From Candidatus Nanosyncoccaceae bacterium (GTDB lineage: Bacteria; Patescibacteriota; Saccharimonadia; Saccharimonadales; Saccharimonadaceae): a stretch of DNA of 64,000 nt. Both the position numbers and the translations under genes were made by a program. Positions 9,600 to 54,805 of this stretch are shown piece by piece. Where the stretch lies: positions 33,670 to 97,669 of the forward strand of contig JBMNHQ010000002.1 of the NCBI GenBank assembly GCA_050950465.1, read 5' to 3'. Within the stretch, counting starts at the first letter, position 1; the number at the start of each line of letters is the position of its first letter. Under the pieces are notes generated by a model. That model saw only the letters and a program-made list of their open reading frames with translations. It was not told the DNA's origin and did no database searches.

Positions 9600-9899
9600 A
9601 TGCTAGACGTATTTATAACATCGAGGGTGCGCCGCAAAATTGTGGTGGTCTATGCAAAGTACCCCGATTTCCGTACCCACGTTAGGGGACTGGCAAAGCT
9701 TATCAAAGAGGATCCGGGTAATATTCAGCGTGAATTAAAACGACTAGAGAATGTCGGCTTCCTGCGATGTGAACGTAAGGGTAATTCGCGAGTCTACTCT
9801 GCTAATAAGCAATTTTTAATTTTTAAAGAATTACAAAGTATTGTGATAAAAACTCAGCAACACGCTGCTAAGAAAAGAGCCTCAAGAAGAGCTAGCTAG
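9600..9899 (+). CDS. Small winged-helix (ArsR/MarR-like) DNA-binding protein
   Basis: The HTH-wing pattern LAKLIKEDPGNIQRELKRLENVGFLRCERKGNSRVY plus a basic tail. Its stop lies 1 nt before the recJ GTG. Confidence 0.6.
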   Translation: MLDVFITSRVRRKIVVVYAKYPDFRTHVRGLAKLIKEDPGNIQRELKRLENVGFLRCERKGNSRVYSANKQFLIFKELQSIVIKTQQHAAKKRASRRAS

Positions 9900-9900
9900 C

Positions 9901-11541
9901 GTGGATGGGTCAGATTTAATTGATTTATTATTAGATAATCGCCATGTTCTGCCCGACCAGCGGATAGATTTTTTGCAGCCTAAATATAGTGCCATAGAGA
10001 AATCAGACCCATTTGGTTTGCCAGATATGTTAAAAGCAGTTGGGCGACTAGAGGTGGCTTATAAACAACAAGAATCAATTTTAATCTACGGTGATTATGA
10101 CTCCGATGGCGTGACTGCTACAGCCTTACTAGTTGACGGTCTTGCCAGTCTTGGTTTTAAAAAAGTTTCGTATCACCTACCTAATCGATTTACTGAAGGG
10201 TACGGTATGAATTCAGAAGTCATTAAAAATCTTAATCCGATACCGAACGTTATTATAACAGTAGATTGTGGCAGCACTAATGTTTCGGAAGTTGATTTAG
10301 CTAACAAGCGTGGCATTGACGTGATCGTGACCGATCATCATCAAATTGGCGATACGGTGCCTAAGGCGATAGCTGTAGTTAATCCAAATCGTCCCGAAAA
10401 CACATATCCCAATCCGCACCTCTCTGGCGTGGGTGTGGCTTTTAGTCTTATTAGAGCTTTACAGCAGCGGCTTAAAACTCTGCCTCAGGGGCAAGAAAAA
10501 TGGTTGCTTGACTTGGTGACAATTGGCACAGTGGCTGATTTAATGCCTTTATTGGGGGAGAATCGAATTTTAGTAAAGTATGGTTTGATAGTATTGAAGA
10601 AGACTCGTCGTCTAGGAATAAAATATCTACTCAGTTTAAGTGGCTTAACGTCTGATAATCCTAGTGCTGATATGGTTGCGTTTGGTTTAGGGCCACGATT
10701 TAATGCAGCAGGGCGACTGGACAATGCTGAATTAGCACTAAATGTCCTAATGGCTAAAAGCTCTGCCAAGGCTAAGGAGGCAGTAGAGCAGTTGGAATAT
10801 TTGAATCAGAAACGCCGCGCCTTGCAGGATAAAATTTATCAGGAAGCGTTTAAGCAAGCTGAGGAAAATGATGACGCTGTTTTAGTCTTGAGTGGTCAGA
10901 ATTGGCATGAGGGCGTGGTTGGTATTGTGGCTTCTAAAATCATGGAGCAGTTTAGCAAACCAGTGTTCATATTGCAAAACAAAGACAATGTTATCAAAGG
11001 TTCAGCGCGGAGCTTTGGCGATTTTTCAATTGCTGCGGCGCTTCAATCGATGCCCGACATAATTGAAAAGGGTGGTGGTCATGCTGCAGCTGGCGGTTTG
11101 ACTTTGAAAGCTGATAATCTACTAGAGTTCACCAAACGAATTAACGCCTTTTATAAAGAGCAAGGGTTAACTAACCAGTTGCGATTTCTTCAACCAAAAG
11201 TTGATGCAAATTTGCCTGATTTACATCTTCTAACTCTTAGTTTTTATCGGCAAATGGAACAATTAGCGCCATTTGGCGTCGGTAATCCTGAGCCAATATT
11301 TGAAGTTCAAAATTTGCGAGTTAAGCGAGTGCAAAAACTTGGTCGTGATGCTAAGCATCTCAAGCTAAATTTAGTTGATGAGCAGGGTGTGGTGATGGAT
11401 TTTCTAGGTTTTAATTTGGCAGAAACCTATACTAACCTTAAAGAAGGTGACTCAGTTAGTGCTGTCTTTAATCTCACTTTAAACGAATGGCAGGGGCGAC
11501 AATCAGTTGAGGGGCGTTTAATCGATTTGTTGATTGGTTGA
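9901..11541 (+). CDS. recJ: Single-stranded-DNA-specific exonuclease RecJ
   Basis: DHH-family motifs GDYDSDGV, TVDCGS, VTDHH and the DHHA1 motif GGGHAAAGG. GTG start. Confidence 0.9.
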   Translation: MDGSDLIDLLLDNRHVLPDQRIDFLQPKYSAIEKSDPFGLPDMLKAVGRLEVAYKQQESILIYGDYDSDGVTATALLVDGLASLGFKKVSYHLPNRFTEGYGMNSEVIKNLNPIPNVIITVDCGSTNVSEVDLANKRGIDVIVTDHHQIGDTVPKAIAVVNPNRPENTYPNPHLSGVGVAFSLIRALQQRLKTLPQGQEKWLLDLVTIGTVADLMPLLGENRILVKYGLIVLKKTRRLGIKYLLSLSGLTSDNPSADMVAFGLGPRFNAAGRLDNAELALNVLMAKSSAKAKEAVEQLEYLNQKRRALQDKIYQEAFKQAEENDDAVLVLSGQNWHEGVVGIVASKIMEQFSKPVFILQNKDNVIKGSARSFGDFSIAAALQSMPDIIEKGGGHAAAGGLTLKADNLLEFTKRINAFYKEQGLTNQLRFLQPKVDANLPDLHLLTLSFYRQMEQLAPFGVGNPEPIFEVQNLRVKRVQKLGRDAKHLKLNLVDEQGVVMDFLGFNLAETYTNLKEGDSVSAVFNLTLNEWQGRQSVEGRLIDLLIG

Positions 11542-16355: not shown

Positions 16356-16409
16356 TCTCCATATTACATATTACACAATAAACTTACTTAAAAATCTGTA
16401 CCAAAACCC

Positions 16410-16438
16410 TTGTGCTTATTTACTTTTCGTGTTAGATT
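16410..16438 (+). promoter_or_regulatory. Candidate promoter of giant surface-protein gene copy 1 (identical copy at 47342-47370)
   Basis: TTGTCA-like TTGTGC (16410-16415), 17 nt, extended -10 TGtTAGATT (16430-16438). It lies inside a ~145-bp block repeated base for base upstream of copy 2. Confidence 0.5.
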
Positions 16439-16498
16439 AAATGTAGCTACTAAGTGTAGTGTGTAAACAATAAATATTCAGGGGAAGGGTTATCTCTG

Positions 16499-19400
16499 TT
16501 GAAATTAGTTACTCGCAAACTAACTAAGTTTCAACCTAAACTTAAATCAAGTTTTAGGTTAGGGTTTAAGTTTGGCTTCAAGATTCACACTAAACACAAA
16601 ACCTCACAAATATTACGTAGTGGTATTATATTAACTTCTCTTATACTTATTACTTTCTTAACACCCATGTTAAAGAAAACGTTTCAACCTCAAACAGTCA
16701 GTGCTGAAACTGTCACTAAGACTTGGCAGTTAAATCAAAACTCTGGCTATAACTACGACTACAACAACTACGAAATCGAACAAACTGCTACTGGGGCTCA
16801 GCTTAAACAACTACCAAGTTCGATTACTTTAACTGCGGATGAGGATAATTTGCTTGAGAGTTGGGGTCTAAGCGCTGGAACTGGGGTTGTCTCAATTATC
16901 GACGACCCATCTAGTGGCGGCACAGGTAAGGTTTATAGCGCCACTGGTCGTAATACTTTATACTCCAAATTTTATATACCGATTAACCCTGACCTCACTT
17001 ATACCCTAAATGGTAGATTCAAATCAGTTGGGGTGGGTGGGGAATCTAGGATATATTTTGGGCTTTATCCTAGCACTAAGCTCTATAATCAGTATAGTGC
17101 ACATAGTCGTCGCGAATATTTGGCTTTTGGTGATACTGCTACCATTTCTAATTACGACGATTTAACTATTACAGTTCAGCCTAGCGCTGACTTGTCGACT
17201 TGGAACCAGGGTGGGGTTGATGTCAGTCATAGACGCCTCGTAGGCTTTTATTTTGACGGTCAGACCAATAAGCTACCAGATTTTATCATACGCCCTCAGG
17301 GAATGGTTCTGAGTGATGTTGACCCAGCTCAAGGAGCTTATTCGACTGCTAGTGGCACGACTATCAATCTTAACGTACCGATTCCACCAGAAGTGCAGAC
17401 TAAAATAATTGCAGGAACAACTAAAATTAAGAACCATGCGGATGGTGCAGCTTATCTTTATGCGGCAGCCTATAACTCATTAGTTCCCACGTCGTCGTAT
17501 GCCAACTTTTCTGGTGCTGTAACTGGCACAAATACTAATTTAATTATTGCACACAATCTGTTTCCTTACGAGACCAATTGGGCGAAAATAGGCCTTATAT
17601 TAAATTATAATCAGGACGAAAACTTCACTACTAACTTCGACGACATCTCTCTCACCATCACTGGCTCTCAACCAATGTATTCATGGCAGTCACCAGCTAT
17701 TGGGCCACCATATAGTCAGTATGTCAGTGGCCAACTAATATCCATGAGTCATACCCTTGGTTCTGGCTCATCAGACAGTGTTAAATACCAAATCTCATTA
17801 GATGATGGCAAAAGTTGGTTGTATTACAACACAACCACTAACGCCTGGGAAAGTGACCTGTCTCAGCACATAGCTAACACAGAGAACCTTTATAGTACTC
17901 CTCTTATTCGTGACCATGGTGCTAACAAAGCCAATACTATCGACGAAATCAACGCTAACCTAAACAAATTACCAGCTACCGATGGTATCAAATTCAAATG
18001 GCGAGCCTTCCTAGAATCCAACGGCACACAGCAAGTTGAACTCCAATCAGTTACCCTTACGGCTAATAACCTTGATCCAACTATCACATCCGTCACACCT
18101 AGCATTGGTCAAACCACTGGTGGTGATACTATCACTATACGTGGCAGTGGCTTCTCTAACGATGAGTTTGAGTACTTTGTTGGTACTTGTGGTATGACTA
18201 AAAGCGGCAAGCTTTACTGCTGGGGTGATAATAGCCGTGGTAAGTTAGGTGATGGTACTTTCGTTTCTCGATCTGACAAACGTCCAATCGCTCAAGGTGA
18301 AGTTCCTATTACCACAATTTTTACACAAATCGTTAATAGCTGGTATCACATGTGTGCCCTTGGCGACGATAACGAAATCTACTGCTGGGGTGACAATCAA
18401 TATGGCCAACTAGGGGATAACACTTATGACAATCGTAATATTCCAACCAAAGTCAACAAAGGTGCTATCCCAGCTGGTGCTAAAATTGCCAGTATCTCGA
18501 CCGGCTTTCATCACACTTGTGTCTTAACTCAAGATGACAAAATGTATTGCTGGGGTCTAAATGATACTGGCCAACTGGGTGATGGCACTACCGACAATAG
18601 TCCTCTGCCAGTTGAGGTTAATCGCGGAGCCATTCCTACATCGGTGAGAATTAGAAGTCTACAAACAGGCTGGATGTCTAGTTGTGTCCTAGCGGGCGAT
18701 AATAATGTCTACTGCTGGGGAGACAATCGATACGGCCAGCTTGGTGATGGTACTACTGGCAGTAAGGCATCTCCAGTGCTTTTGTCTCAGGGCCAGCGCG
18801 ATCCGAGCTTTAATATTTCTCAATTATCTACAGGGGCCCACCATGCCTGTATAAAAGACAGTGATAATAAGAGCTACTGCTGGGGATTAAATACCTATGG
18901 TCAACTTGGCGATGGTACTTTGTTCAACAAAACTAGCCCAACAGCTGTTACTCAGGGGGATATGCCCAATCAAGACATTAAGCAAGTTGTGGCTGGTTAT
19001 CGGAATACTTATGTTATTGGCTCCGACGATAAGCTCTATGTCTGGGGACACAATGAACGTGGTTCGGTAGGTGACGGGACTTTTACAAACAGAAGCGCCC
19101 CAACTCTGACTCTATTGCCATATAGCTTGGGCACGGTTGTCAGTATGGATCAGTTTGCCTTTCGTAGTGTCGCTGTTTTGTCTAACAATCAAGTATACGC
19201 TTGGGGAGTAGCCAGTGGCTTTCTTGGCGACATTGTGTCGGGAGATCAACCTCTTCCTGTCCGCGCCAGTCGTTCATCTAACCAAGTCAAATTCGACAAC
19301 ACCTACGCACCCTACGTTGAGCGCATCTCACCATATAAACTACGAGTCAGAAACCCAGCACACGATGAGGGTATAGTAAGTGTCACCGCTACCAACTCCA

Positions 19401-22400
19401 CTGGCGAGACTACCACCAAAGCCGATTCTTACACCTACGAAAACCCCACCACACCAGAGATAACTAGCATCTCACCCAGCGAAGGTCTGATTTACGGTGG
19501 CGAAGAAGTCACTATCACTGGCATTAATTTAGATAATATGAAGTGGAAACAGGTGGCAGCTGGAGGCTCTCATGCTTGTGCTATTGGACTAGATAATAAT
19601 GTTTATTGCTGGGGACTAAACAGCTTTGGTCAACTTGGCAATGGTAACAACAACAACTCTAATATTCCCGTTGCTATTTCCCAAGGTGATATACCTACTA
19701 GTGTGACGATTCAGCAACTCTCGGCTGACAGCTATCATACCTGCGCTCTTGGTTCAGACAATAAAGCTTATTGCTGGGGGCGGAACAATTATGGCCAACT
19801 CGGTGATGGCAATAGTGGTTCTAGCGCTGATAAATCTACTCCAGTCGCCGTTCTTCAGGGCGCCATCCCAACTGGCGTCACCATTCAGCAAATCTCGGTT
19901 GGTGGCTCTCACACCTGCGTCCTTGGTTCAGACAATAAAGCTTATTGCTGGGGAAATAATTACCATGGCCAGCTTGGTAATAACAAGAGTGGTGGTAGTC
20001 AATTCTCGTACGATAATAATATTGATTCTTCAACTCCAGTTGCTGTTATCCAAGATAATGTCCCTACCGATATAGTTTTCCAACAAATTACAGTCGGTGG
20101 CGGTCATACCTGCGCTCTTGGTTCAGATAATAAAGCTTATTGCTGGGGGAGTAATAGTAATGGTCAGCTTGGTGATGGCACTACTAATAACAAAACCACT
20201 CCAGTCGCCGTTCTTCAGGGCGCCATCCCAACTGGCGTCACTATCCAGCAACTCTCGGCTGGCACCTCTCATACCTGCGCTCTTGGTTCAGACAATAAAG
20301 CTTATTGCTGGGGGCGGAACAATTATGGCCAACTCGGTGATGGCAATAGTGGTTCTAGCGCTGATAAATCTACTCCAGTCGCCGTTCTTCAGGGCGCCAT
20401 CCCAACTGGCGTCACCATTCAGCAAATCTTGGTTGGCACCTCTCACACCTGCGCTCTTGGTTCAGACAATAAAGCTTATTGCTGGGGATTTAATTGGGGT
20501 GGTCAGCTTGGTGATGGCACTACTAATAACAAAACCACTCCAGTCGCCGTTCTTCAGGGCGCCATCCCAACTGGCGTCACCATTCAGCAAATCTTGGTTG
20601 GCACCTCTCACACCTGCGCTCTTGGTTCAGACAATAAAGCTTATTGCTGGGGGAATAATAATAACGGTCAGCTTGGTGATAGCACTATAACCAACCGTAT
20701 TACTCCAGTACCTGTTAAAACCGCCAATTATTCGGTTGCTTTCGGTGATATTTCAACTCAACAAATTGTCTCATTAGTTAATACTCAAGTGAAAGTTGTT
20801 GCGCCAGCTCATCAATTTGGTGTCAAAGATATTAGTTTGACTCATACTATAATGAATCATACGAGTAGCACATTATCCAGTGCGTATAACTATATTAATC
20901 CGTCAGCACCTGTAATTGCGTCAGTTAATCCTAAAACTGGAGTGTCTGCTGGTAACATTAATGCGACAGTTCAAGTTGAAAATTCGTCGAACCTTAAAAT
21001 AGCTGATGATCTTGTGCAAATAACCACTGGCACCTCTCATACCTGCGCTCTTGGTTCAGACAATAAAGCTTATTGCTGGGGGCGGAACAATTATGGCCAA
21101 CTCGGTGATGGCAATAGTGGTTCTAGCGCTGATAAATCTACTCCAGTCGCCGTTCTTCAGGGCGCCATCCCAACTGGCGTCACCATTCAGCAAATCTCGG
21201 TTGGTGGCTCTCACACCTGCGTCCTTGGTTCAGACAATAAAGCTTATTGCTGGGGATTTAATTGGGGTGGTCAGCTTGGTGATGGCACTACTAATAACAA
21301 AACCACTCCAGTCGCCGTTCTTCAGGGCGCCATCCCAACTGGCGTCACCATTCAGCAAATCTCGGTTGGTGGCTCTCACACCTGCGCTCTTGGTTCAGAC
21401 AATAAAGCTTATTGCTGGGGATATAACAATCATGGTCAACTTGGTGATGGCGCTGGTAGTGCTGGTGATTATAAAACCACTCCAGTCGCCGTTCTTCAGG
21501 GCGCCATCCCAACTGGCGTCACTATCCAGCAACTCTCGGCTGGCACCTCTCATACCTGCGCTCTTGGTTCAGACAATAAAGTATATTGCTGGGGATACAA
21601 CTTTCTTGGTCAACTTGGTGATGGCACCAAGACTAATCGCACCACTCCTGTCGCCGTTTCCCAAGGTGATATACCTACTAGTGTAACGATTCAGCAACTC
21701 TCAGTTGGCAGCAACCATGCTTGTGTTCTTGACTCAAATAACCAGGTTTACTGTTGGGGACATGGTGGCTACGGTCAGCTCGGTGATGGCACTACGATCG
21801 ATAGCACTAGTCCAACTGCCGTTCTTTCTGGTGATATACCTACTAGCGTAACGATTCAGCAAGTTTTTGCTCTCGGAGCAGAAATATACAATGCTTATAC
21901 CTGCGCTCTTGGTTCAGACAATCGTGTCTATTGTTGGGGTTGGAATAGCTACGGTCAACTCGGTGATGGTACTGCTACTCAACGTAATGTCCCTACGGTC
22001 ATCCTTCCGGGTGTTATTCCTATGGATGTTATTTTTCAACAAATTGTTGGTGGCGGTTTTCACACCTGTGCCCTCGACTCAACTGGTAAAGCCTATTGTT
22101 GGGGACACAACGAATATGGTCAACTCGGCACCAACCAAGTAGGCGACCCAGACGATCTCACAGACATCTCAGCCAGTCGTTACACCCCCGCCTATGTCAT
22201 GATGAAGTCCGATCCACTGGAAGTAAGCTTTGGTACCACTGCTGAACACACCGCCGGCACAGCCGGACTAGCTACAGCCGTCTCATCATTCACCGTACCC
22301 GATGGCCAATACTACATCCCAGGCACCACTACACTAACTCTTAACACTCCAGCCCACTCTGTTGGTCCCGTAGCCGTAGTAGTTAAGAACGCTGATGGTC

Positions 22401-22540
22401 AATCTAGCTCTAACACCATCGCCGCTGATGACTCTAATAAGTACACCTACACCAGTGTCCCCGATGCCCCAACTAACCTAACCGCCAATGCTACACCAGT
22501 CACTAACCAAGGCATCAACTACAACATCAATCTAAGCTGA
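16499..22540 (+). CDS. Giant surface protein, copy 1: membrane anchor + beta-rich N domain + three IPT/TIG domains each split by a 7-bladed RCC1 propeller; reading frame stopped by TGA inside the FN3 domain
   Basis: TTG start after GGGGAAGGG. Basic N-terminus plus a hydrophobic helix (IILTSLILITFLTPML). There are 21 RCC1 signatures (YCWGxNxxGQLGDG) arranged 7+7+7, and IPT strands (ITSVTPSIGQTTGGDTITIRGSGF ... VKFDNTYAPYVERISPYKLRVRNPAH..YTY). TGA at 22538-22540. Confidence 0.9.
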   Translation: MKLVTRKLTKFQPKLKSSFRLGFKFGFKIHTKHKTSQILRSGIILTSLILITFLTPMLKKTFQPQTVSAETVTKTWQLNQNSGYNYDYNNYEIEQTATGAQLKQLPSSITLTADEDNLLESWGLSAGTGVVSIIDDPSSGGTGKVYSATGRNTLYSKFYIPINPDLTYTLNGRFKSVGVGGESRIYFGLYPSTKLYNQYSAHSRREYLAFGDTATISNYDDLTITVQPSADLSTWNQGGVDVSHRRLVGFYFDGQTNKLPDFIIRPQGMVLSDVDPAQGAYSTASGTTINLNVPIPPEVQTKIIAGTTKIKNHADGAAYLYAAAYNSLVPTSSYANFSGAVTGTNTNLIIAHNLFPYETNWAKIGLILNYNQDENFTTNFDDISLTITGSQPMYSWQSPAIGPPYSQYVSGQLISMSHTLGSGSSDSVKYQISLDDGKSWLYYNTTTNAWESDLSQHIANTENLYSTPLIRDHGANKANTIDEINANLNKLPATDGIKFKWRAFLESNGTQQVELQSVTLTANNLDPTITSVTPSIGQTTGGDTITIRGSGFSNDEFEYFVGTCGMTKSGKLYCWGDNSRGKLGDGTFVSRSDKRPIAQGEVPITTIFTQIVNSWYHMCALGDDNEIYCWGDNQYGQLGDNTYDNRNIPTKVNKGAIPAGAKIASISTGFHHTCVLTQDDKMYCWGLNDTGQLGDGTTDNSPLPVEVNRGAIPTSVRIRSLQTGWMSSCVLAGDNNVYCWGDNRYGQLGDGTTGSKASPVLLSQGQRDPSFNISQLSTGAHHACIKDSDNKSYCWGLNTYGQLGDGTLFNKTSPTAVTQGDMPNQDIKQVVAGYRNTYVIGSDDKLYVWGHNERGSVGDGTFTNRSAPTLTLLPYSLGTVVSMDQFAFRSVAVLSNNQVYAWGVASGFLGDIVSGDQPLPVRASRSSNQVKFDNTYAPYVERISPYKLRVRNPAHDEGIVSVTATNSTGETTTKADSYTYENPTTPEITSISPSEGLIYGGEEVTITGINLDNMKWKQVAAGGSHACAIGLDNNVYCWGLNSFGQLGNGNNNNSNIPVAISQGDIPTSVTIQQLSADSYHTCALGSDNKAYCWGRNNYGQLGDGNSGSSADKSTPVAVLQGAIPTGVTIQQISVGGSHTCVLGSDNKAYCWGNNYHGQLGNNKSGGSQFSYDNNIDSSTPVAVIQDNVPTDIVFQQITVGGGHTCALGSDNKAYCWGSNSNGQLGDGTTNNKTTPVAVLQGAIPTGVTIQQLSAGTSHTCALGSDNKAYCWGRNNYGQLGDGNSGSSADKSTPVAVLQGAIPTGVTIQQILVGTSHTCALGSDNKAYCWGFNWGGQLGDGTTNNKTTPVAVLQGAIPTGVTIQQILVGTSHTCALGSDNKAYCWGNNNNGQLGDSTITNRITPVPVKTANYSVAFGDISTQQIVSLVNTQVKVVAPAHQFGVKDISLTHTIMNHTSSTLSSAYNYINPSAPVIASVNPKTGVSAGNINATVQVENSSNLKIADDLVQITTGTSHTCALGSDNKAYCWGRNNYGQLGDGNSGSSADKSTPVAVLQGAIPTGVTIQQISVGGSHTCVLGSDNKAYCWGFNWGGQLGDGTTNNKTTPVAVLQGAIPTGVTIQQISVGGSHTCALGSDNKAYCWGYNNHGQLGDGAGSAGDYKTTPVAVLQGAIPTGVTIQQLSAGTSHTCALGSDNKVYCWGYNFLGQLGDGTKTNRTTPVAVSQGDIPTSVTIQQLSVGSNHACVLDSNNQVYCWGHGGYGQLGDGTTIDSTSPTAVLSGDIPTSVTIQQVFALGAEIYNAYTCALGSDNRVYCWGWNSYGQLGDGTATQRNVPTVILPGVIPMDVIFQQIVGGGFHTCALDSTGKAYCWGHNEYGQLGTNQVGDPDDLTDISASRYTPAYVMMKSDPLEVSFGTTAEHTAGTAGLATAVSSFTVPDGQYYIPGTTTLTLNTPAHSVGPVAVVVKNADGQSSSNTIAADDSNKYTYTSVPDAPTNLTANATPVTNQGINYNINLS
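18175..19265 (+). repeat. RCC1 propeller 1 of copy 1 (7 blades, approximate bounds)
   Basis: Seven (Y/V/A)(C/V/A)WG..N..G.LGDG motifs: KLYCWGDNSRG, EIYCWGDNQYG, KMYCWGLNDTG, NVYCWGDNRYG, KSYCWGLNTYG, KLYVWGHNERG, QVYAWGVASG. Confidence 0.85.
19541..20720 (+). repeat. RCC1 propeller 2 of copy 1 (7 blades, approximate bounds)
   Basis: Seven CWG blades. Several are nearly identical at the DNA level to each other and to blades of propeller 3. Confidence 0.85.
21011..22140 (+). repeat. RCC1 propeller 3 of copy 1 (7 blades, approximate bounds)
   Basis: Seven CWG blades, from KAYCWGRNNYG through KAYCWGHNEYG. Confidence 0.85.
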
Positions 22541-23263
22541 ACAGCACCAGTCAGTGATGGCTATAGTCCTATCACTGACTATCTCATAGAGTACTGCATT
22601 AGTAATAGCTCTGGTGTCTGTAACCCATCTCCAGAAGGGGACTGGACTATCTACAATGATGGCACCAGCACTAATACCAGTACTACCATAAGCTCTCTCC
22701 CAGCTAGCCCATCAGCCTACTATACCTTCAGAGTCTCAGCTATTAACAACATCGGCACTAGCCAACCTAGTAACACTCCTACAGTCCAAACTAGCTTCAT
22801 CACACTGTCTTCATCAGTTGACACTGTCACTATTAACATCAACCCATCAGCCAGTGGTAGTACTAATACCTTCTCATCCACTACCCATAATCTCATAGCC
22901 AACTCTAACACCAACTACAACATCACACTATCTATGCCTAGTACCACCCAAACTCTATCCAATGGCACTCACACCATTAACCCCACATCAGCTAATGCCT
23001 CCAATCCTCAATTAGACCTCCCAGCCAACACTTGGGGTTACCGACTCAATAACACTACCTTTGGCACCACTACTACCATAGAGACTAATGTCCCTAATAG
23101 CCAATACACTTGGGCTCAAGTTCAACAGAGCACCACACCAGACCTCATCTACACTGGCACAGGCAATCACACCTTCCCAGTCTACTATGGCTTAAAGGCT
23201 AGCCACACCCAAGCCTCTGGTACCTATACTGGCACTGTTACCTATACAGCTACGACGCAGTAG
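22541..23263 (+). pseudogene. In-frame 3' continuation of copy 1 (rest of FN3 domain + Thr-rich C-terminal domain) cut off by the single TGA
   Basis: There are 723 nt (241 codons) in the same frame as 16499, with no further stop until TAG at 23261-23263. The segment is near-identical to 54015-54737 of copy 2 at a constant offset of 31474. Confidence 0.85.
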
Positions 23264-23379
23264 GGGGCTAGGATAAACAATTTGCGAGTCGTGTTAGATA
23301 ATGGTACGGCCATTGACTTTTTATAGTTTTTGTGATACATTAGAAGTATCTAACAAACAAAAACAAAAAGGATCAATAA

Positions 23380-23638: not shown

Positions 23639-26155
23639 ATGTCAATAATTAAACAAAAGATTCTCGGTTTCATCGGTCGGCACCGTCTGCTAGTGTTTTC
23701 GCTATTTATTGCAATCTTATTGCCGATAGCGACTAGTGCGGCTGGTGACGTGAAAATCCGCATGATCAGTGATGGTCAAAAATACTTAAGAAATGCTGCT
23801 ACTGGCAAATATATGACGGCCAATCGTATGCTTGGGCCAAATGGTGAGGTTTATTTCTGCGCCAATAAGGGGTTGCGCGGACCGGACTATTTATCGCGCG
23901 GCTCTTATGGCACATACACCTCGCCTCAAAAAATGGGTGATTTACCCAAAAAGGTCCTTTTGTTAGGTTATCCAAATCGTCAGATAGCTGGCTTTAACGA
24001 GAGCGAGCAGTACCATATTACGCAAAATGCCTTCTGGGCAAGCTCAACTAATTATGTAGTAAACGCTAAAAACACAGTCGGGAATTTGCGTGCAACATCA
24101 TATGTTAACGGCAAGGCTCGAAATGAACAGATTTTGCAGGCAGTTAAGGATCTTTATAATCACGCTGTCAGCACCAATATTGCTGAGTTTAATCCAAGCC
24201 TAACCTTGAATTCGGCGCCTCAGGCTACATTAAAGGGCGATATCTTTGTAGCAGGCCCCTTTTCAGTTACTGGCAAAAACGTCAGGTCGGCTAATCTCGC
24301 ACTGAGTGCAACCGGTGTTAACAACGCTAGATTTTACAATGAGCAAAATCAAACTATTACCCATATTGGTCTTGGACAGAAATTTTACATAAGTTTTCCT
24401 AAGCTAGGTAATAGTCTAAAGGGTACGGCAAACATTAATCTAAGCGGTAAGCAATCTTACTTAGAGGGATTGATTTATAAGCCACCGCAAAGCAATATGC
24501 AAGACATGGCGACATTGGAGGTTGTTGAGACGGCCGCCAATTTAAATACAGCTGCTAAATGGGAATTGACTCCATCTGGTCGTGTCGAAATACTTAAAAT
24601 TGATGCTATTTCTTCAAAACCCCTCTCTGGTGCGACGTTTGAGATTTATAACTCTTCTGGACAAAAAGTTTATTCAGCCGTAACTGATAATAGTGGAAAA
24701 ATTACCTCTTCAAATTTAAACGCTGGTAAATACACTTTCAAAGAAACAGTAGCGCCATCGGGCTATTATCTAAATGATAGAGTTGGCACAGTTGAAATTA
24801 AAACTAATGGCGAGTTGGTGCGCGCCAGTTTGAGTAATCAACCAATTCCAGACACACCTATTCAGATTAAAAAAGTGGATGCTAACACTAAGACAGTCTT
24901 GCGTGGTGCAAAGATTGAAGTACTCAATTCTAATAATGTCAAAGTATTTTCAGGTCTAACCGACAATAATGGCATAGCTGAAGTTGGCCAGCTCAAGGCT
25001 GGTAAATATACTTACAAAGAAGTTGAGCCACCTGCTGGCTATTATCATAATACCAACACTTATGACTTTACTATTAACCCAGGCGATAGCCTAAAGGTAC
25101 TAACCATAGAGAATACCGCTGTAAAGAAAATAACCGTCTGTGATTTAACTAGTCGATCTATGGTGACAATTGAAGAGACTAAGTTCGATTCTGCAAAATA
25201 TTCTAAAAATCAAGACGACTGTACAAGCATTGAAGTCTGTGACCTGACAACCCGTAAGTCTACTACCATCATCAAAACAGCCTTTGATAAAACCAAACAC
25301 TCTAACAACTGGGATGATTGTACAAGCATCGAGGTCTGCGATTTAACAACCCGCAAACCAGCTACCATCATCAAAACAGCCTTTGATAAAACCAAACACT
25401 CTAACAACTGGGATGATTGTGAGTCGATTAAGGTCTGTGATCTAAAAACTCGCAAATCGGTTACCATCATCAAAACAGCCTTTGACAAAACTAAGCACTC
25501 TAATAACCTAGACGACTGTACAAGCATTGAAGTCTGTGACCTGACAACCCGTAAGTCTACTACCATCATCAAAACAGCCTTTGATAAAACCAAACACTCT
25601 AACAACTGGGATGATTGTACAAGCATCGAGGTCTGCGATTTAACAACCCGCAAACCAGCTACCATCATCAAAACAGCCTTTGATAAAACCAAACACTCTA
25701 ACAACTGGGATGATTGTACGGAAACTAAGGTATGTGAGTTGGATAGTAAAAAAGTAATTACGATTGTAGAATCAGCTTTCGATCCAGCTAAACATTCACG
25801 CAACTTAGAAGACTGTAATCTTAAGATTGAAGTTTGTGAGTTGGAAACCAAGAATATCATCATCATCGACGAAACAAAGTTTGATTCCGTCAAACATTCA
25901 AAGAATCTAGAAGATTGTATTCCGAAAATCGAAGTTTGTGACCTAAACACTAAACAGATAGTTACTATCAAAGAGGCAGACTTTGATGAAACCAAATATT
26001 CCAAGGATCATGAAGACTGTCTCTCGACTCCAGCTGAACTGCCAAAAACTGGTCCACTGGAAACCGTGGCTGCATTGATTGCCATCACCGCTGTTAGCTT
26101 GTCGATTACCTACTGGTATAAATCAGCTCAAGCAGTTAAACAGATTAAGCGCTAA
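23639..26155 (+). CDS. LPXTG-anchored adhesin: signal peptide, thioester (TED/TQXA) domain, two SpaA/Cna-B prealbumin-like domains, nine 33-aa Cys-bounded repeats
   Basis: Signal LLVFSLFIAILLPIATSAAG. VYFCANKG (Cys74, nt 23858-60) with LLGYPN and HITQNAFW (Gln129, nt 24023-25) match thioester-domain motifs. Two copies of the G.kYt.kEt.aP.GY pattern. LPKTG at 26039-26053, then a helix and a basic tail. Confidence 0.85.
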   Translation: MSIIKQKILGFIGRHRLLVFSLFIAILLPIATSAAGDVKIRMISDGQKYLRNAATGKYMTANRMLGPNGEVYFCANKGLRGPDYLSRGSYGTYTSPQKMGDLPKKVLLLGYPNRQIAGFNESEQYHITQNAFWASSTNYVVNAKNTVGNLRATSYVNGKARNEQILQAVKDLYNHAVSTNIAEFNPSLTLNSAPQATLKGDIFVAGPFSVTGKNVRSANLALSATGVNNARFYNEQNQTITHIGLGQKFYISFPKLGNSLKGTANINLSGKQSYLEGLIYKPPQSNMQDMATLEVVETAANLNTAAKWELTPSGRVEILKIDAISSKPLSGATFEIYNSSGQKVYSAVTDNSGKITSSNLNAGKYTFKETVAPSGYYLNDRVGTVEIKTNGELVRASLSNQPIPDTPIQIKKVDANTKTVLRGAKIEVLNSNNVKVFSGLTDNNGIAEVGQLKAGKYTYKEVEPPAGYYHNTNTYDFTINPGDSLKVLTIENTAVKKITVCDLTSRSMVTIEETKFDSAKYSKNQDDCTSIEVCDLTTRKSTTIIKTAFDKTKHSNNWDDCTSIEVCDLTTRKPATIIKTAFDKTKHSNNWDDCESIKVCDLKTRKSVTIIKTAFDKTKHSNNLDDCTSIEVCDLTTRKSTTIIKTAFDKTKHSNNWDDCTSIEVCDLTTRKPATIIKTAFDKTKHSNNWDDCTETKVCELDSKKVITIVESAFDPAKHSRNLEDCNLKIEVCELETKNIIIIDETKFDSVKHSKNLEDCIPKIEVCDLNTKQIVTIKEADFDETKYSKDHEDCLSTPAELPKTGPLETVAALIAITAVSLSITYWYKSAQAVKQIKR
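25124..26020 (+). repeat. Nine tandem 99-bp (33-aa) coding repeats, consensus IEVCDLtTrK..TIiKtaFDktKHSnN.dDCts
   Basis: Read directly from the translation. Repeats 2-3 and 5-6 are DNA-identical, reflecting a ~297-bp higher-order duplication (about 25210-25410 = 25507-25707). Confidence 0.9.
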
Positions 26156-47281: not shown

Positions 47282-47341
47282 TAGATAAGTATACTCTTCC
47301 ATTATACCATAAGCACTATAAAAAGTCCATAGCCAAAACCC

Positions 47342-47370
47342 TTGTGCTTATTTACTTTTCGTGTTAGATT
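47342..47370 (+). promoter_or_regulatory. Candidate promoter of giant surface-protein gene copy 2 (identical to 16410-16438)
   Basis: Same TTGTGC-17-TGtTAGATT, in a block identical to 16401-16545. Confidence 0.5.
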
Positions 47371-47430
47371 AAATGTAGCTACTAAGTGTAGTGTGTAAAC
47401 AATAAATATTCAGGGGAAGGGTTATCTCTG

Positions 47431-50400
47431 TTGAAATTAGTTACTCGCAAACTAACTAAGTTTCAACCTAAGCTAAATAAAGCAACACAGTTTAGGTTAG
47501 GGTTTAAGTTTGGGTTTAAGTCTAAGGCTAACTCAGTTCAAAGCTCTAGCCCTAACTCTAATCTAAGCCTAAAGACTAATTATGGTTTTAAGATAAAAAC
47601 CAAACACCAAACCAACCAAACCCTAAGACTAGGACTAACACTAGCTTCACTCATACTCATAACCTTCCTATCACCTATACTAAAGAAGACCTTCACTCCA
47701 CACACAACTAACGCTACTACCATAACTAAAACATGGCAGTTAAACCAGAATATTCCCACTCAATACGATTACAACACACATGAAATTGAACAAACCGCTA
47801 CTGGCGCTAGACTAAAACAACTACCAAGCTCCATCACACTTACGGCTGATGAAGAGAGTTTCTTTGATGTGTGGGAGCCATATTATGGCGGTGGGCAAAC
47901 TTCAATAGTTGACGACCCTTCCAGTGGTGGTAATGGTAAAGTGTATAATGTTGCTAATCATGTTCAGCTTTTCTCTAATTTCTTTGTACCAATTAATCCA
48001 GATTTTACTTATACTATAAGTGGAAGATTTAAGTCAGTTGGTGCAGGTGGTGAATCTATGGTGTATTTTGGTCTTGCACCATATGATAAAAATTATTATC
48101 AACCAAACTTTATACAGCGGAGTGATTACCGTGCTGTTGGCGATACGGCCACTATTGCTAATTATGATGATTCAACTATCACAGTTCAAGCTGGCGTAGA
48201 TTTATCGACTTGGAATCAAGGTGGAGTGGATTTAGCTGTTGATCGTTTAATTGGCTTCTATTTTGATGGTCAGACTGACAAATTACCAGATTTTGTCATA
48301 TCGCCTCAAGAGTCTGGTTATTATTATAGTACAGATCCGACTAGAGGGGCTTATTCCACTGCTAGTGGTACAACCATTAATCTTAATACACCGATTCCGC
48401 CTGAAGTGCAGGCTAAAATAAACTTAGATGTAACGAAGATTAAGAATCATATGGGCGACTCTACATATCTTTATACAGCAGCTAAGTCAAAACTTATTCC
48501 CGCTAATATATACACTACCTATTCGGGTAGTATAACTGGCATAAATACTAGCTTGGGTCAAAATATACATAACTCATTCCCATACGAAACCAATTGGGCA
48601 AAAATAGTTATCTTACTCAACTATGGTCAAGATCATAATTATGCTACCAACTTCGACGACATCTCTCTCACTATCACTGGTTCTCAACCAATGTATTCAT
48701 GGCAGTCACCAGCTATTGAGCCACCATATAGCCAATACGTTAGTGGTCAACTAACATCTATGAGTCACACGCTTGGCTCTGGCTCATCAGACAGTGTTAA
48801 ATACCAAATCTCATTAGATAATGGCAAAAGCTGGCTTTATTACAACACGACCACTAACGCTTGGGAAAGTGACTTATCTCAGCGAGTATCAAATAGTAGT
48901 ATTTATCGCATTACTACCATCCGTGACCACGGCGCCCTCAAAGCCAATACTATCGAAGAAATCAACGCCAACTTAAACAAGTTACCAGCCACCGATGGCA
49001 TCCAATTCAAATGGCGCGCCTTCTTAGAGTCCAACGGCACTCAGCAGGTTGAACTCCAATCAGTCACTCTCACAGCCAATAACCTTGATCCAACTATCAC
49101 ATCCGTCACACCTAGCATTGGTCAAACCACTGGTGGTGATACTATCACTATACGTGGCAGTGGCTTCTCTAACGATGAGTTTGAGTACTTTGTTGGTACT
49201 TGTGGTATGACTAAAAGCGGCAAGCTTTACTGCTGGGGTGATAATACTTGTGGCCAACTAGGTGATGGCACTTTTACTAGCCGTTTAGATAAACGACCAA
49301 TCGCTCAAGGTGAAGTCCCAACCACTACAACCTTCACTCAGATTGTTAAAGGCTGGCTACACATGTGTGCTCTTGGCGACGATAACGAAATCTACTGCTG
49401 GGGTGACAATCAATATGGCCAATTGGGCGATGGTGCTTTCGACAACCGCAACATTCCAACTAAAGTCAACAAAGGCGCCATACCAGCCAGTGCTAAAATA
49501 ACCTCTATTTCTACAGCTTATTACCACACCTGTGCTCTAACCCAAGACGATAAGATGTATTGTTGGGGGCAAAATGACCTCGGTCAACTCGGTGACGGTA
49601 CCACTGACAATCGCTCACTACCAGTTGAAGTTAACCGTGGTAATATCCCAACATCAGTTAGAATCAGAAGTCTGCAGACTGGCTGGAAGCATAGCTGTGT
49701 CCTCGCTGGCGATAATAACGTCTATTGTTGGGGTCGAAACACTCTTGGTCAGCTCGGTGATGGTACTACTACTCATAGATCATCTCCAGTCCTTGTAATT
49801 CAAGGTCAGCGTGACCCTAGCTATAATATTACTCAATTATCCGTCGGTGCTCACTATGCCTGTATCAAGGATACTGATAGTAAAGCCTATTGTTGGGGTC
49901 GAAATGTTGATGGTGAATTAGGTAGCGGAATTACATCAAACTACGAAACTAGCCCAGTCGCTATTGCCCAAGGAGTTATGCCTGATCAAAATATTAAAAC
50001 CATCATGGCAGGCTATTGGAGCACTTATGCGATTAGCTCTGATGACAAACTTTATGCTTGGGGGCATAACGGAGACGGTTCCTTAGGTGATGGCACCACT
50101 ATAAATCGCAATACACCAATATTAGTCTCGTTACCGTACAGTTCTGGTGTAAATATCTCTCATACTAATTTCTGGTGGCGCTCTGCTCGAGTTACTGTGT
50201 CTAATGGACATCATTATATTTGGGGATTAAACAATCATGGCCAATTAGGTGATGGCACACAAACTAGCTACCACACACCAACCCACATCCGCTACTCCAC
50301 TAACCAAGTCAAGTTTGGTGACAACTACGCACCACAAGTTGAGCGTATTTCACCATATGAACTGCGTGTCCGAAACCCAGCGCATGAAGCTGGAGTAGTA

Positions 50401-50553
50401 GGAGTAACAGCCACCAACTCAACTGGCGAGACTACCACCAAAGCCGATTCTTACACCTACGAAAACCCCACCACACCAGAAATAACTAGCATCTCACCTA
50501 ACGAAGGTCTGATCTACGGTGGCGAGAAGTCACTATATCTGGCACTAATTTAG
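47431..50553 (+). CDS. Giant surface protein, copy 2, 5' part (anchor, N domain, IPT1 with nested 7-blade RCC1 propeller, start of IPT2), ended by frameshift
   Basis: TTG start in a context identical to copy 1 and collinear with copy 1 throughout. After ...ITSISPNEGLIYGGE the frame runs out (KSLYLALI, TAG 50551-53) because of a 1-nt deletion relative to copy 1. Confidence 0.9.
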   Translation: MKLVTRKLTKFQPKLNKATQFRLGFKFGFKSKANSVQSSSPNSNLSLKTNYGFKIKTKHQTNQTLRLGLTLASLILITFLSPILKKTFTPHTTNATTITKTWQLNQNIPTQYDYNTHEIEQTATGARLKQLPSSITLTADEESFFDVWEPYYGGGQTSIVDDPSSGGNGKVYNVANHVQLFSNFFVPINPDFTYTISGRFKSVGAGGESMVYFGLAPYDKNYYQPNFIQRSDYRAVGDTATIANYDDSTITVQAGVDLSTWNQGGVDLAVDRLIGFYFDGQTDKLPDFVISPQESGYYYSTDPTRGAYSTASGTTINLNTPIPPEVQAKINLDVTKIKNHMGDSTYLYTAAKSKLIPANIYTTYSGSITGINTSLGQNIHNSFPYETNWAKIVILLNYGQDHNYATNFDDISLTITGSQPMYSWQSPAIEPPYSQYVSGQLTSMSHTLGSGSSDSVKYQISLDNGKSWLYYNTTTNAWESDLSQRVSNSSIYRITTIRDHGALKANTIEEINANLNKLPATDGIQFKWRAFLESNGTQQVELQSVTLTANNLDPTITSVTPSIGQTTGGDTITIRGSGFSNDEFEYFVGTCGMTKSGKLYCWGDNTCGQLGDGTFTSRLDKRPIAQGEVPTTTTFTQIVKGWLHMCALGDDNEIYCWGDNQYGQLGDGAFDNRNIPTKVNKGAIPASAKITSISTAYYHTCALTQDDKMYCWGQNDLGQLGDGTTDNRSLPVEVNRGNIPTSVRIRSLQTGWKHSCVLAGDNNVYCWGRNTLGQLGDGTTTHRSSPVLVIQGQRDPSYNITQLSVGAHYACIKDTDSKAYCWGRNVDGELGSGITSNYETSPVAIAQGVMPDQNIKTIMAGYWSTYAISSDDKLYAWGHNGDGSLGDGTTINRNTPILVSLPYSSGVNISHTNFWWRSARVTVSNGHHYIWGLNNHGQLGDGTQTSYHTPTHIRYSTNQVKFGDNYAPQVERISPYELRVRNPAHEAGVVGVTATNSTGETTTKADSYTYENPTTPEITSISPNEGLIYGGEKSLYLALI
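49189..50300 (+). repeat. RCC1 propeller 1 of copy 2 (7 blades, approximate bounds)
   Basis: Seven CWG/AWG/IWG blade motifs, from KLYCWGDNTCG to HHYIWGLNNHG. Confidence 0.85.
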
Positions 50554-50573
50554 ATAATTTTAAGTTTAAACAA

Positions 50574-53500
50574 ATGGCTAAATCAGGTGGACCAACTAAT
50601 CACAACTGTGTTATTGGTCTAGATGGTTGGGTTTATTGTTGGGGGCGTAATGAATCTGGTCAACTTGGTACTGGCGATACCAATAGCCGCTCTACTCCAG
50701 TTGCTATCCAGCGTGGTGAAATACCAGCCGATGCTACTATTGAGTCTCTCTACATTGGTGGACGCCATGGTTGCGTTATTACTGACGCAGGCGATGCTTA
50801 CTGTTGGGGTGAAAACAACTCTGGTCAACTTGGTAACGGTCTATCAGGTGGGAGGGGTGACTCATTTGACCTTGGTATTGATCAGTCTACTCCAGTAGCT
50901 GTCCAACGAGGTATTATACCAACTAACGTTAAATTTTCCCAAATGGCCTTAGGCGGTGATGCTAGCGTCAATGGTTCTCCACCTGAGCACACCTGCGCCC
51001 TCGACTCAGCAGGTCAAGCCTACTGTTGGGGATATAACTACTATGGCCAACTCGGCACTGGTAATACTACTAGCTCCAATATCCCAGTTGCCGTCCAGTC
51101 TAATGACCTTGGCCACGCTCTCTATGGTAAGACTATTACCCAAATCACGGCTGGCTACTCTCACACCTGCGCCCTCGACTCAGCTGGCCAAGCCTACTGT
51201 TGGGGAAATAATTACCATGGTCAACTTGGTACTGGTGTGAGTGGTGGTGTCTCATATTATTATGATGACGGTATTGACTTCAACGTCCCAGTCCCCATCA
51301 AAGCTAATGACCCAACTGACGCTCTCCATAACAAAACCATCACCCAAGTCATAGCTGGTCGGCAGCACACCTGCGCTCTCGACTCAGACGGTAAGGTCTA
51401 CTGCTGGGGGTATAATAACTATGGCCAACTCGGCACTGGTAACGCCACTGACTTCAACGTCCCAGTCCCCATCAAAGCTAATGACCCAACTGACGCTCTC
51501 CATAACAAAACCATCACCCAAGTCATAGCTGGTCGGCAGCACACCTGCGCTCTCGACTCTACTGGCAAAGCCTACTGTTGGGGATATAATCAATATGGTC
51601 AACTCGGCACTGGTAATAGCACTAGCTCCAATGTACCAGTTTCCGTCAAAGCTGACCAACCAACCGATGTTCTCTACGGTAAAATTATTACGCAAATCAC
51701 AGCTGGTGGCTATGACACCTGCGCTCTCGACTCAGCTGGCCAAGCCTACTGTTGGGGATATAACTACTATGGCCGGCTCGGCATTGGTAATAATACTAGC
51801 TCTAATGTCCCACTACTAGTCAAACCAGGCTATCTCATCTACTTTGGTGGTACACCAACTAGCTTGGGTCTCTATCCAACTGGTAATAACACTAAATTAA
51901 CCAGTATTGAACTTAAAGTCATATCTCCAGCTGTCAGTGGACCGGCTACTGTTAATATTACTCTTCACTCTACTACTACCAACACTACCTATAACACCCT
52001 CAACCAAGTCTACACTTTCATTAGTCCACCAACTCCAATTATCACCCAAGTCATTCCTAACGCTGGCTCAGCTAATGGCAATACTGCCATAAGAGCTACT
52101 AACTTATCTAACCTCAAGTTAGCCGATGATTTTACTCAAATTACAGCTGGTGGTAGTCACACCTGCGCTCTCGACTCAGATAATAAAGCTTATTGTTGGG
52201 GAGGTGGCTACTCTGGTCAACTCGGCACTGGTAATACTAACAACTCTAATGTCCCAGTCCTCGTCAAAGCTGATGACCCAACTGACGCTCTCTATGGTAA
52301 AACCATTGCGCAAATCACCGCTGGCAGCTCTCACACCTGCGCCCTCGATTCCACCGGCCAAGCCTACTGTTGGGGGCATAACCAGTATGGCCAACTCGGC
52401 ACTGGTGATACCACTAACTCCAACGTCCCAGTCGCCGTCCAGTCTAACGACCCAACTGACGCTCTCTATGGTAAAACTATTACTCAAATCACGGCTAGCC
52501 AGCACCACACTTGCGCTACTGACTCCACTGGTCAAGCTTACTGTTGGGGAAGAAACGGCTTTGGCCAACTCGGTAATGGCGATACTAACGACTCCAATGT
52601 CCCAGTTCTAGTTGAAGCTAATAATCCAACTGATGCTCTCTATGGTAAAACCATTGCGCAAATCACCGCTGGCACCTCTCACACCTGCGCTCTCGATTCC
52701 ACCGGCCAAGCCTACTGTTGGGGATATAACGGCTCTGGCCAACTCGGCACTGGTGATACCACTAACTCCAACGTCCCAGTCGCCGTCCAGTCTAACGACC
52801 CAACTGACGCTCTCTATGGTAAAACTATTACTCAAATCACGGCTAGCCAGCACCACACTTGCGCTACTGACTCCACTGGTCAAGCTTACTGTTGGGGAAG
52901 AAACGGCTTTGGCCAACTCGGTAATGGCGATACTAACGACTCCAATGTCCCAGTTCTAGTTGAAGCTAATAATCCAACTGATGCTCTCTATGGTAAAACT
53001 ATTACCCAAATCACGGCTGGCACCTCTCACACCTGCGCTCTCGATTCCACCGGCCAAGCCTACTGTTGGGGATATAACGGCTCTGGCCAACTCGGCACTG
53101 GTGATACCACTAACTCCAACGTCCCAGTCGCCGTCCAGTCTAACGACCCAACTGACGCTCTCTATGGTAAAACTATTACTCAAATCACGGCTAGCCAGCA
53201 CCACACTTGCGCTACTGACTCCACTGGTCAAGCTTACTGTTGGGGAAGAAACGGCTTTGGCCAACTCGGTAATGGCGATACTAACGACTCCAATGTCCCA
53301 GTTCTAGTTGAAGCTAATAATCCAACTGATGCTCTCTATGGTAAAACTATTACCCAAATCACGGCTGGCACCTCTCACACCTGCGCCCTCGATTCCACCG
53401 GCCAAGCCTACTGTTGGGGGCATAACCAGTATGGCCAACTCGGCACTGGTGATACCACTAACTCCAACGTCCCAGTCGCCGTCCAGTCTAACGACCTAAC

Positions 53501-54737: not shown

Positions 54738-54805
54738 GGGGCTGGTCAGTCATGACTAAAAGTAGTAAAATAGGAGTGTTTCAGACAAATACCTAAAGGA
54801 GCAAA

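Follow-up and report, generated by a model that had tools for sequence, protein, structure and literature searches.

Probable gene conversion between two old paralogs encoding giant RCC1-propeller proteins in a Candidatus Saccharibacteria genome

Introduction

How can two genes of one bacterial genome be identical in separate segments, synonymous sites included, when the sequences between these segments are saturated with substitutions? This question was raised by a contiguous stretch of 64,000 nucleotides (hereafter: the window) from a wastewater Candidatus Nanosyncoccaceae bacterium (GenBank assembly GCA_050950465.1, contig JBMNHQ010000002.1, positions 33,670 to 97,669, forward strand), in which the list of open reading frames (ORFs) showed two units for giant RCC1-propeller proteins in direct orientation. 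The homologous 3' ends of these units (locus 1 and locus 2) are spaced by a constant offset of 31474. An earlier interpretation that used the DNA letters alone (hereafter: the sequence-only reading) regarded the pair as a two-cassette variable adhesin or antigen system of an episymbiotic cell of the Candidate Phyla Radiation (CPR). The CPR affiliation was supported by the seryl-tRNA synthetase of the organism, which showed 90 and 80% amino acid identity to its nearest Genome Taxonomy Database (GTDB) representatives (L007 and L008, respectively) and placed the organism in Candidatus Saccharibacteria.

Results

Identical blocks in two diverged genes

Over their whole aligned length, the two loci are 71% identical. 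At the 5' end, positions 16401–16539 (forward strand) of locus 1 are an exact, 139-bp copy of positions 47333–47471 (forward strand) of locus 2, the latter directly 3' of serS. The left edge of this block is sharp at 16401 and the first mismatches occur at 16540 and 16543. The sequence-only reading had extended the base-for-base repeat to 16545; the part up to 16539 stood, as did the presence in the block of a promoter, leader, Shine-Dalgarno (SD) sequence and TTG start, but the shared coding sequence amounts to 13.7 rather than some 16 codons. At the 3' end, 22475–23269 and 53949–54743 (both forward strand) differ at two positions in 795 bp, namely 22540 (A/G, TGA versus TGG) and 22570 (T/A). 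From 22571 to 23269 (54045–54743 in locus 2) the match is exact over 699 bp, ending 6 nt past the TAG stop; hpf and secA follow at locus 2. This block encodes a fibronectin type III (fn3) domain (ca. 22517–22780) and a C-terminal domain (CTD) of 157 amino acids (22790–23260), followed by the stop codon and 6 nt. Both differences had been correctly noted before, as a TGA/TGG pair at 22538–22540 versus 54012–54014 and a single cct/cca change (position 22570) between 22541–23263 and 54015–54737.

The earlier, two-ended picture was incomplete. A third exact block of 169 bp (18065–18233, forward strand; 49078–49246 in locus 2), which encodes a TIG-like strand and the first RCC1 blade, had been overlooked, and further identical runs of 65, 59 and 51 bp in a codon-aware alignment revealed a mosaic, not merely conserved ends. 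In 2000 permutations of the mismatch positions the longest run was 43 bp, as compared to observed runs of 693, 169, 65, 59 and 51 bp, which excluded chance.

Synonymous divergence (dS), calculated by region according to Nei and Gojobori (NG86), was zero for the 3' block; the 169-bp block gave 0.03 and 22475–22570 gave 0.05. Intermediate values were obtained for 22178–22474 (0.38), the second TIG-like region (0.49) and 17661–18064 (0.73), and saturated values of 1.6–3.5 for the N-terminal domain (N-domain), propeller 1 and the cores. Over 22178–22474, the ca. 300 bp preceding the 3' block, the proportions of synonymous and nonsynonymous differences (pS and pN) were 0.30 and 0.036, in agreement with the earlier remark that changes in this stretch are mostly synonymous. 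The N-terminal 500 or so codons, previously described as diverged, were so overall but not in 17661–18233, where protein identity reached 93–100%. Instead of a uniform divergence along the alignment, which would have spoken against recombination, both identity and dS thus showed a mosaic.

Since synonymous sites in the blocks are identical too, this identity cannot be attributed to selection on the protein. Two old paralogs probably acquired these identical blocks from one another by gene conversion or some other non-reciprocal recombination with the same effect. The identity and dS pattern is an observation; direction and mechanism of transfer are inferred from it. The proposal that the ends were shaped by conversion was upheld by the contrast between three blocks with dS near 0 and a background that is saturated, and by the dissimilar 3' ends in a relative described below.

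Family members in related genomes

A relative (L103; ENA ERZ2647956 NODE_20) has two members of this family, which lie in unrelated genomic surroundings. At the 3' end they share ca. 76% identity with each other and ca. 82% with the loci of the window. The 3' block is therefore more alike within the window (100%) than between genomes (ca. 82%), as is characteristic of concerted evolution. Since the two paralogs of the relative are only ca. 76% alike at their 3' ends, the homogenized tails of the window are recent and lineage-specific rather than a fixed property of the family.

The serS-secA interval showed gene gain and loss among close relatives. In the 80% relative L008 (7682–8280), no giant gene was found at the serS site. 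In the 90% relative L007 (11297–12043), a giant gene has the same leader and a shorter N-terminus, in which the signal region leads almost straight into TIG/RCC1 sequences and the N-domain of ca. 460 amino acids is absent.

The shared 5' control region

In locus 1, the candidate promoter consists of a -35 element TTGTGC (16410–16415) and a TG-extended -10 element TAGATT (16433–16438), followed by a leader of ca. 60 nt, an SD sequence GGGGAAGGG (16481–16489), the TTG start at 16499 and the 13.7 shared codons MKLVTRKLTKFQPK. A generic sigma-70 scan did not flag this promoter, whose -35 element matches only three of six consensus positions; support for it comes from conservation of its position in other species. 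Leader, SD sequence, TTG start and the first 14 codons are retained in the relatives L007 and L103.

A structured RNA in the leader was considered and rejected, since Rfam yielded no matches at gathering thresholds and the folding z-score was -0.14. RNAalifold analysis of four leader sequences gave no informative result. The TTG start lies within a near-perfect inverted repeat, GTTGAAATTAGTTA-N9-TAACTAAGTTTCAAC (16497–16535 and 47429–47467), which is conserved in L103 and present with changes in L007. This repeat might occlude the start codon, although the stability of the fold as a whole is not out of the ordinary (z = -0.14). Two scans of metagenomes for the leader pattern yielded no more than one chance match (L104), in a collection evidently without the samples concerned.

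Variants in other samples

Contigs 99.97–100% identical to the window were recovered from several JGI, Logan and ENA samples. The organism is present, for example, in JGI samples 3300049641-43, 3300060680, 3300060803 and 3300060823. Housekeeping DNA was 100% identical across contigs of many such samples, one of them labelled HEND19, which points to either a very clonal, widespread population or a related sample series.

Over the flank of locus 1, contig L113 is an exact match to the window; it shares the TGA, and its alleles at 22339–22570 are those of locus 1. Its 49 substitutions in 22045–22312 form a patch that is 87% locus-2-like, with some variants that neither locus of the window has. 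Contig L093, with no mismatches over 6.7 kb of the hpf-secA flank, carries a third mosaic in 22171–22474 and a core only ca. 78% identical to that of locus 2. The combination T22474-G22540-T22570 in L095 represents a locus-1-type haplotype without the stop codon. No mixture of the two loci of the window could yield these novel variants or the T-G-T haplotype. Contigs L095 and L110 show reciprocal combinations of core and flank. With regard to the chimeric alleles for which the sequence-only reading had suggested a comparison of metagenome strains, patchwise variation was seen next to the 3' block (L093 and L113); the reciprocal combinations of L095 and L110 are indistinguishable from mis-joins. 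Relative to the window, L087 contains a six-site patch whose sequence recurs without change in other blades of the gene and which could reflect blade-to-blade exchange or mis-assembly of repeats.

Since patches just 5' of the 3' block vary among samples whose genomes do not differ otherwise, recombination at these loci appears to be ongoing and to draw on more than the two sequences of the window.

Weighing conversion against other explanations

Several observations weigh against conversion between the two loci. No conversion event was seen directly. The 5' leader is 91% identical to that of relative L103 over ca. 100 bp; such conservation between species implies that selection, alongside conversion, contributes to identity of this block. 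Both genes are broken once in this strain, in which they may therefore be decaying rather than functioning. Contigs L095, L110 and L099 cross the 699-bp exact repeat in short-read assemblies and, since this repeat is longer than Illumina reads, may be mis-joins. Furthermore, L093 and L113 may represent products of short-read assembly, co-occurring strains or a third paralog located beyond the window, and the samples may not be independent of one another.

Doubtful, but to be taken seriously, is an explanation in which the mosaics, and possibly the blocks, derive mainly from DNA of other strains or from further paralogs, with little exchange between the two loci. Consistent with such an origin, L093 and L113 carry variants of neither window locus, G+C content is 45.4–45.9% in 16401–23269 and 47333–54743 as compared to ca. 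41% in the surrounding housekeeping DNA, and the content of the locus varies among close relatives (none at serS in L008, shorter in L007). An identity of 699 bp within one genome, beside differing cores, would nevertheless still require intragenomic exchange.

Cassette-type antigenic or adhesin variation, in which cores would be swapped by programmed conversion guided by the conserved ends, is improbable. Conserved ends do flank a variable middle, L110 and L095 show reciprocal core/flank combinations, and L113 and L093 have variant patches in backgrounds that do not differ otherwise. However, both copies are of full length and do not differ in promoter, SD sequence or start, which leaves no silent-donor logic for the two-cassette system proposed in the sequence-only reading, and no promoterless or truncated donors were seen within the 64 kb. 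The only CTD matches in the window are the two loci, and extra copies or fragments of the family were absent from it. The youngest tracts homogenize constant modules and do not shuffle propellers, contrary to the swapping of cores that had been envisaged. In addition, the ends of the relative's genes are not homogenized, no recombinase, G-quadruplex (G4) or similar element was seen, and the repeat crossed by the chimeric contigs exceeds the length of Illumina reads.

A recent duplication of the whole gene, followed by very fast diversifying selection on its middle without conversion, has little to recommend it: the homology limits are sharp at 16401 and 23269, as for one duplicated unit, but saturation of synonymous sites is not an effect of positive selection (dS of 1.6–3.5 versus 0, with intermediate steps between), and the relative carries, at different sites in its genome, two paralogs that have diverged to the same extent.

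That two separate loci are real was confirmed by contigs that together cover every unique junction. A 236-kb contig (L087) extends from the upstream flank (ftsZ) through locus 1, including the TGA, and stops at 22697. L111 and L001 represent a single 27.5-kb contig (23143–50670) that joins the tail of locus 1 to the core of locus 2 and includes the frameshift of the latter; L001 is identical to the window through 50670. At locus 2, L001 and L004 read through the 5' block from serS, and L002, L003 and L005 break inside it. The 3' block is entered from the hpf side by L092, L094, L100 and L101 and from the locus 1 flank, which encodes a 75-amino-acid protein, by L111, L112 and L114–L119. The contig ends at 22570+127 and 23270-127 (L087 and L111) reflect the behavior of a k=127 de Bruijn graph at an exact repeat. 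An assembly artefact, by duplication of one locus or by consensus collapse or polishing that made blocks identical, is thus hardly tenable and in its structural part largely refuted: although the cores are highly repetitive and short-read assemblies break at these repeats, the junctions ftsZ-locus 1, serS-locus 2, 3' block-75-amino-acid gene and 3' block-hpf each occur in independent assemblies, one contig connects both loci, contigs end where a true exact repeat would make them end, and cores that are 50–70% identical are no duplicates.

Proposed course of homogenization

Under the preferred reading, by conversion, the giant secreted RCC1-propeller proteins would be encoded by two paralogous genes of old origin, each with its own promoter. 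Repeated non-reciprocal homologous recombination would homogenize those modules that both proteins must share: promoter, leader and signal N-region (139 bp), the junction of TIG and first blade (169 bp), and fn3 plus a pilin-like domain (699–795 bp). The presumably ligand-facing N-domain and propellers would stay substitution-saturated, and older, intermediate tracts would adjoin the youngest ones. The 31-kb interval between the loci encodes ParAB, ribosomal proteins, EF-Ts, ribosome recycling factor (RRF), release factor 1 (RF1) and three aminoacyl-tRNA synthetases, in line with the earlier description of direct-repeat loci bracketing essential genes. A crossover between direct repeats would delete these 31 kb of essential genes, so that only non-crossover products would be expected to survive.

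One lesion in each gene

The locus 1 gene (16499–22540, forward strand; 2013 amino acids) was also called on the independent contig L087. It is closed by a TGA nonsense codon (22538–22540, forward strand) that replaces a conserved fn3 tryptophan codon, TGG at 54012–54014 in locus 2. Beyond it, the frame is open for 240 more codons to the TAG at 23261–23263. An alternative code, with TGA read as tryptophan or glycine, was ruled out by the use of TGA as stop in nine of 42 housekeeping genes and by the presence of genes for both RF1 and RF2. The TGA is polymorphic among samples: L087 and L113 carry it, and L095 has a locus-1-type haplotype with TGG.

Locus 2 is also interrupted, in correction of the sequence-only reading. 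A 1-bp deletion near 50526 (GGCGAGAAG versus GGCGAAGAAG) causes a frameshift within 50518–50533 (forward strand), where GGTGGCGAGAAGTCAC has one A fewer than GGTGGCGAAGAAGTCAC of locus 1. The frameshift closes an N-terminal ORF of 1040 amino acids (47431–50553, forward strand); the downstream ORF (50574–54737, forward strand; 1387 amino acids) encodes propellers 2 and 3 (seven and nine blades), fn3 and CTD. When one base was put back, a continuous protein of 2435 amino acids was obtained. A programmed frameshift at 50526 was considered and rejected: no slippery heptamer is present and the site was read as a deletion. No simple-sequence repeat was found at either lesion, the TGA being a point substitution and the frameshift lying within GAAGAAG.

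In relative L103, a giant RCC1 gene is split by an in-frame TAA for a consensus CAA (9780–10020; context KTIL*VS versus KTI.Q) on a contig with a coverage of only ca. 7x. This is the third single-lesion interruption met in the giant RCC1 gene family.

Architecture of the giant proteins

Pfam profiles confirmed the domains that had been proposed. Matches above gathering thresholds were obtained for RCC1, RCC1_2 and WD40_RLD (PF00415, PF13540 and PF25390; E values of 1e-61 to 1e-240), and TIG and an fn3 domain at the C-terminus were identified as well. The two proteins have a basic tail at their N-terminus, followed by a single hydrophobic helix (ca. 16610–16672 in locus 1). This N-terminus, followed by TIG, RCC1 and fn3 domains, supported the earlier claim of a secreted or surface protein. 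The N-terminal tail of locus 2 has the insertion previously noted, of ca. 26 amino acids relative to locus 1. Downstream of the helix, locus 1 encodes a ca. 460-amino-acid N-domain without family assignment, TIG-like linkers and three seven-bladed propellers. The sole match of the N-domain in protein databases (560-amino-acid query) was P0035, outside the LamG_3 domain of that protein. A scan of GTDB genomes with the C-terminal 361 amino acids found no relative; searches with this query and with the N-terminal 560 amino acids also missed the window's own proteins.

There are 21 blades (7+7+7) in the protein of locus 1 and 23 (7+7+9) in that of locus 2. Blade lengths of 52–53 versus 58 amino acids, as reported before, were incorrect; actual lengths are 55 amino acids in propeller 1 of both proteins and, beyond it, alternately 55 and 58 in locus 1 and 58 in locus 2. 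An array at 52186–53594 in locus 2, with 4.0 copies of a 348-bp, two-blade unit (94% matches), accounts for the nine rather than seven blades of its third propeller. This array represents either a recent tandem expansion or an uncertain repeat number in the assembly.

An LPXTG motif with hydrophobic stretch and basic tail was absent from both giant proteins, which end in ...GTVTYTATTQ. A role as adhesins in host contact is probable for both.

A C-terminal domain related to pilin-like subunits

The 157-amino-acid CTD is homologous over its full length to the mature part of abundant, ca. 200-amino-acid secreted proteins of Saccharibacteria (hhalign probability 99.9%, E 1e-32). Of these small subunits, 31 out of 32 matched the NCBIfam profile NF058581 (CPR_Pam_pilin_C) at E<=0.01 (best E 2.4e-7), with scores of 24–30 bits over nearly the whole profile, below the curated cut-off of 55 bits. 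Pam pilin CTDs have been described as truncated Ig domains acting as acceptors of a donor strand (bioRxiv 10.64898/2026.03.03.709456). A structure model of the CTD (predicted local distance difference test, pLDDT, 95.3) gave CsuE, the PapG pilin domain, FimA and PapE, chaperone-usher pilins and tip adhesins, as top Protein Data Bank (PDB) matches in Foldseek.

In relative L102 (11397–15460), a giant gene lies directly upstream of three small-subunit genes, followed by a gene for a 302-amino-acid protein with a weak WxLIP_PGBD match (E 0.015) and fn3-like matches. The same operon (201+205+200+304+278 amino acids) occurs in Ca. Mycosynbacter amalyticus (L121 8715–12339, CP045921), in which it is separate from the pam operon (P0137 corresponds to WP_260763664.1 and pam to WP_260763277–WP_260763289). 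No giant gene adjoins the copy of the operon analyzed in Ca. Mycosynbacter amalyticus. This conserved Saccharibacteria operon, encoding three ca. 200-amino-acid Pam-pilin-C-like subunits, a ca. 303-amino-acid protein and an Ig-domain protein, appears to be uncharacterized. One of its small subunits showed a weak SCPU match (E 0.012).

A relation to pilins is weakened by the scores of the CTD itself. Against NF058581, the CTD of the window reached 12.5 bits (E 0.12; cut-off 55 bits), and its Foldseek matches were weak (E>=0.08; template modelling, TM, scores of 0.35–0.43). The Pfam WxL profile (PF13731) did not match the CTD or P0016 at E<=1, nor P0137 at E<=0.1, despite the UniRef name of P0137 ('WxL domain-containing'). 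Foldseek on a two-domain (fn3+CTD) model gave no informative match and a PDB sequence search with an fn3+CTD profile retrieved fn3 domains only. Within the 64-kb window, neither a small-subunit gene nor a pam operon with its PamC/PamD chaperones was found. These scores suggest that the CTD belongs to a family distantly related to NF058581 rather than to NF058581 itself.

As the remaining step of the mechanism proposed above, the shared tail would most likely dock both giant proteins onto a common surface fibre or complex, a role assigned with modest confidence. Docking onto one shared fibre or complex would explain why both paralogs kept the same tail. A more elaborate scheme, which is tentative and rather unlikely as a whole, would make the giant proteins interchangeable heads of one Pam/WxL-like fibre, with the 3' module as a FimH/PapG-like pilin-type acceptor. 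Conversion would then keep the heads compatible with the three-subunit system, the loci serving as mutual repair templates, and point-mutational on/off switching with patchwise recombination of distal blades would shift host specificity among clonal cells.

Genes adjacent to the loci

Locus 1 is preceded by ftsA and ftsZ and followed by the 75-amino-acid ORF and a gene for an 838-amino-acid thioester-domain/SpaA protein; locus 2 lies between serS, directly upstream of its 5' block, and hpf-secA. The 838-amino-acid protein (23639–26155, directly 3' of locus 1) has an LPKTG sorting signal and a transmembrane helix, and its gene contains a 99-bp tandem array at 25103–25894. A 739-amino-acid version, 297 bp (three units) shorter, was found on contig L112. 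Several contigs break within this array, which reflects either copy-number polymorphism or assembly collapse.

Discussion

The closest known analogue of this gene pair appears to be the babA/babB/babC family of Helicobacter pylori. The bab genes are full-length paralogs at separate loci with N-terminal homology, a divergent middle and a C-terminal homology above 90%; intragenomic conversion gives chimeric alleles, and genotypes differ between strains (PMC4552749). The loci of the window likewise are full-length paralogs at separate sites, in which a divergent middle is flanked by conserved 5' and 3' regions. In contrast to the Bab proteins, which are ca. 75-kDa outer-membrane proteins of a diderm, they encode RCC1-propeller proteins of 2250–2440 amino acids in a monoderm-like CPR bacterium. 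Whereas bab genes are switched on and off by slippage in CT repeats, a nonsense codon and a 1-bp deletion without simple repeats were found here, and the putative recent conversion tracts of the window lie in constant modules rather than in the cores.

Haemophilus influenzae hmw1A and hmw2A are large paralogous adhesin genes at two unlinked loci, with shared export-related ends and divergent binding regions. HMW adhesins are two-partner-secretion substrates with hmwB and hmwC at each locus, and vary in phase by 7-bp promoter repeats. Neither hmwB/hmwC-type partner genes nor such 7-bp repeats are present at the window loci. In the pilE/pilS, vlsE, tprK and MgPa systems (of Neisseria, Borrelia, Treponema and Mycoplasma genitalium, respectively), one expression site is combined with many silent partial donors, and conversion diversifies variable regions. 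The loci of the window would share with these cassette systems a segmental, non-reciprocal recombination of surface-protein genes guided by conserved flanks; they differ in that two complete, promoter-bearing genes are involved and recent tracts homogenize constant regions.

The predicted layout, in which one pilin-like Ig domain at the C-terminus follows a large adhesive part, is reminiscent of the tip adhesins FimH, PapG and CsuE. As in Pam pili, small homologous subunits are operon-encoded; unlike Pam pili, they score below the NF058581 cut-off and belong to a different operon, and both a filament and donor-strand exchange would be hypothetical for this family. Homogenization of this type is familiar from the adhesin genes of other bacteria; what appears to be new is the phylum in which it occurs and the architecture of the proteins.

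Exact repeats of 139 to 699 bp fragment or mis-join short-read metagenome-assembled genomes (MAGs) at exactly these genes. If the conversion reading holds, intragenomic recombination shapes surface genes even in reduced CPR genomes of ca. 1 Mb. To our knowledge, only type IV pili and Pam pili have so far been implicated in host recognition by Saccharibacteria. The loci described here supply concrete candidates for host contact, RCC1-propeller giants whose tail is homologous to pilin-like subunits. Their variable parts differ between samples in which the flanking housekeeping DNA is 100% identical, which makes a link between fibre and host range testable. The most rewarding leads are the tail, with its resemblance to pilins, and the mosaics seen among strains.

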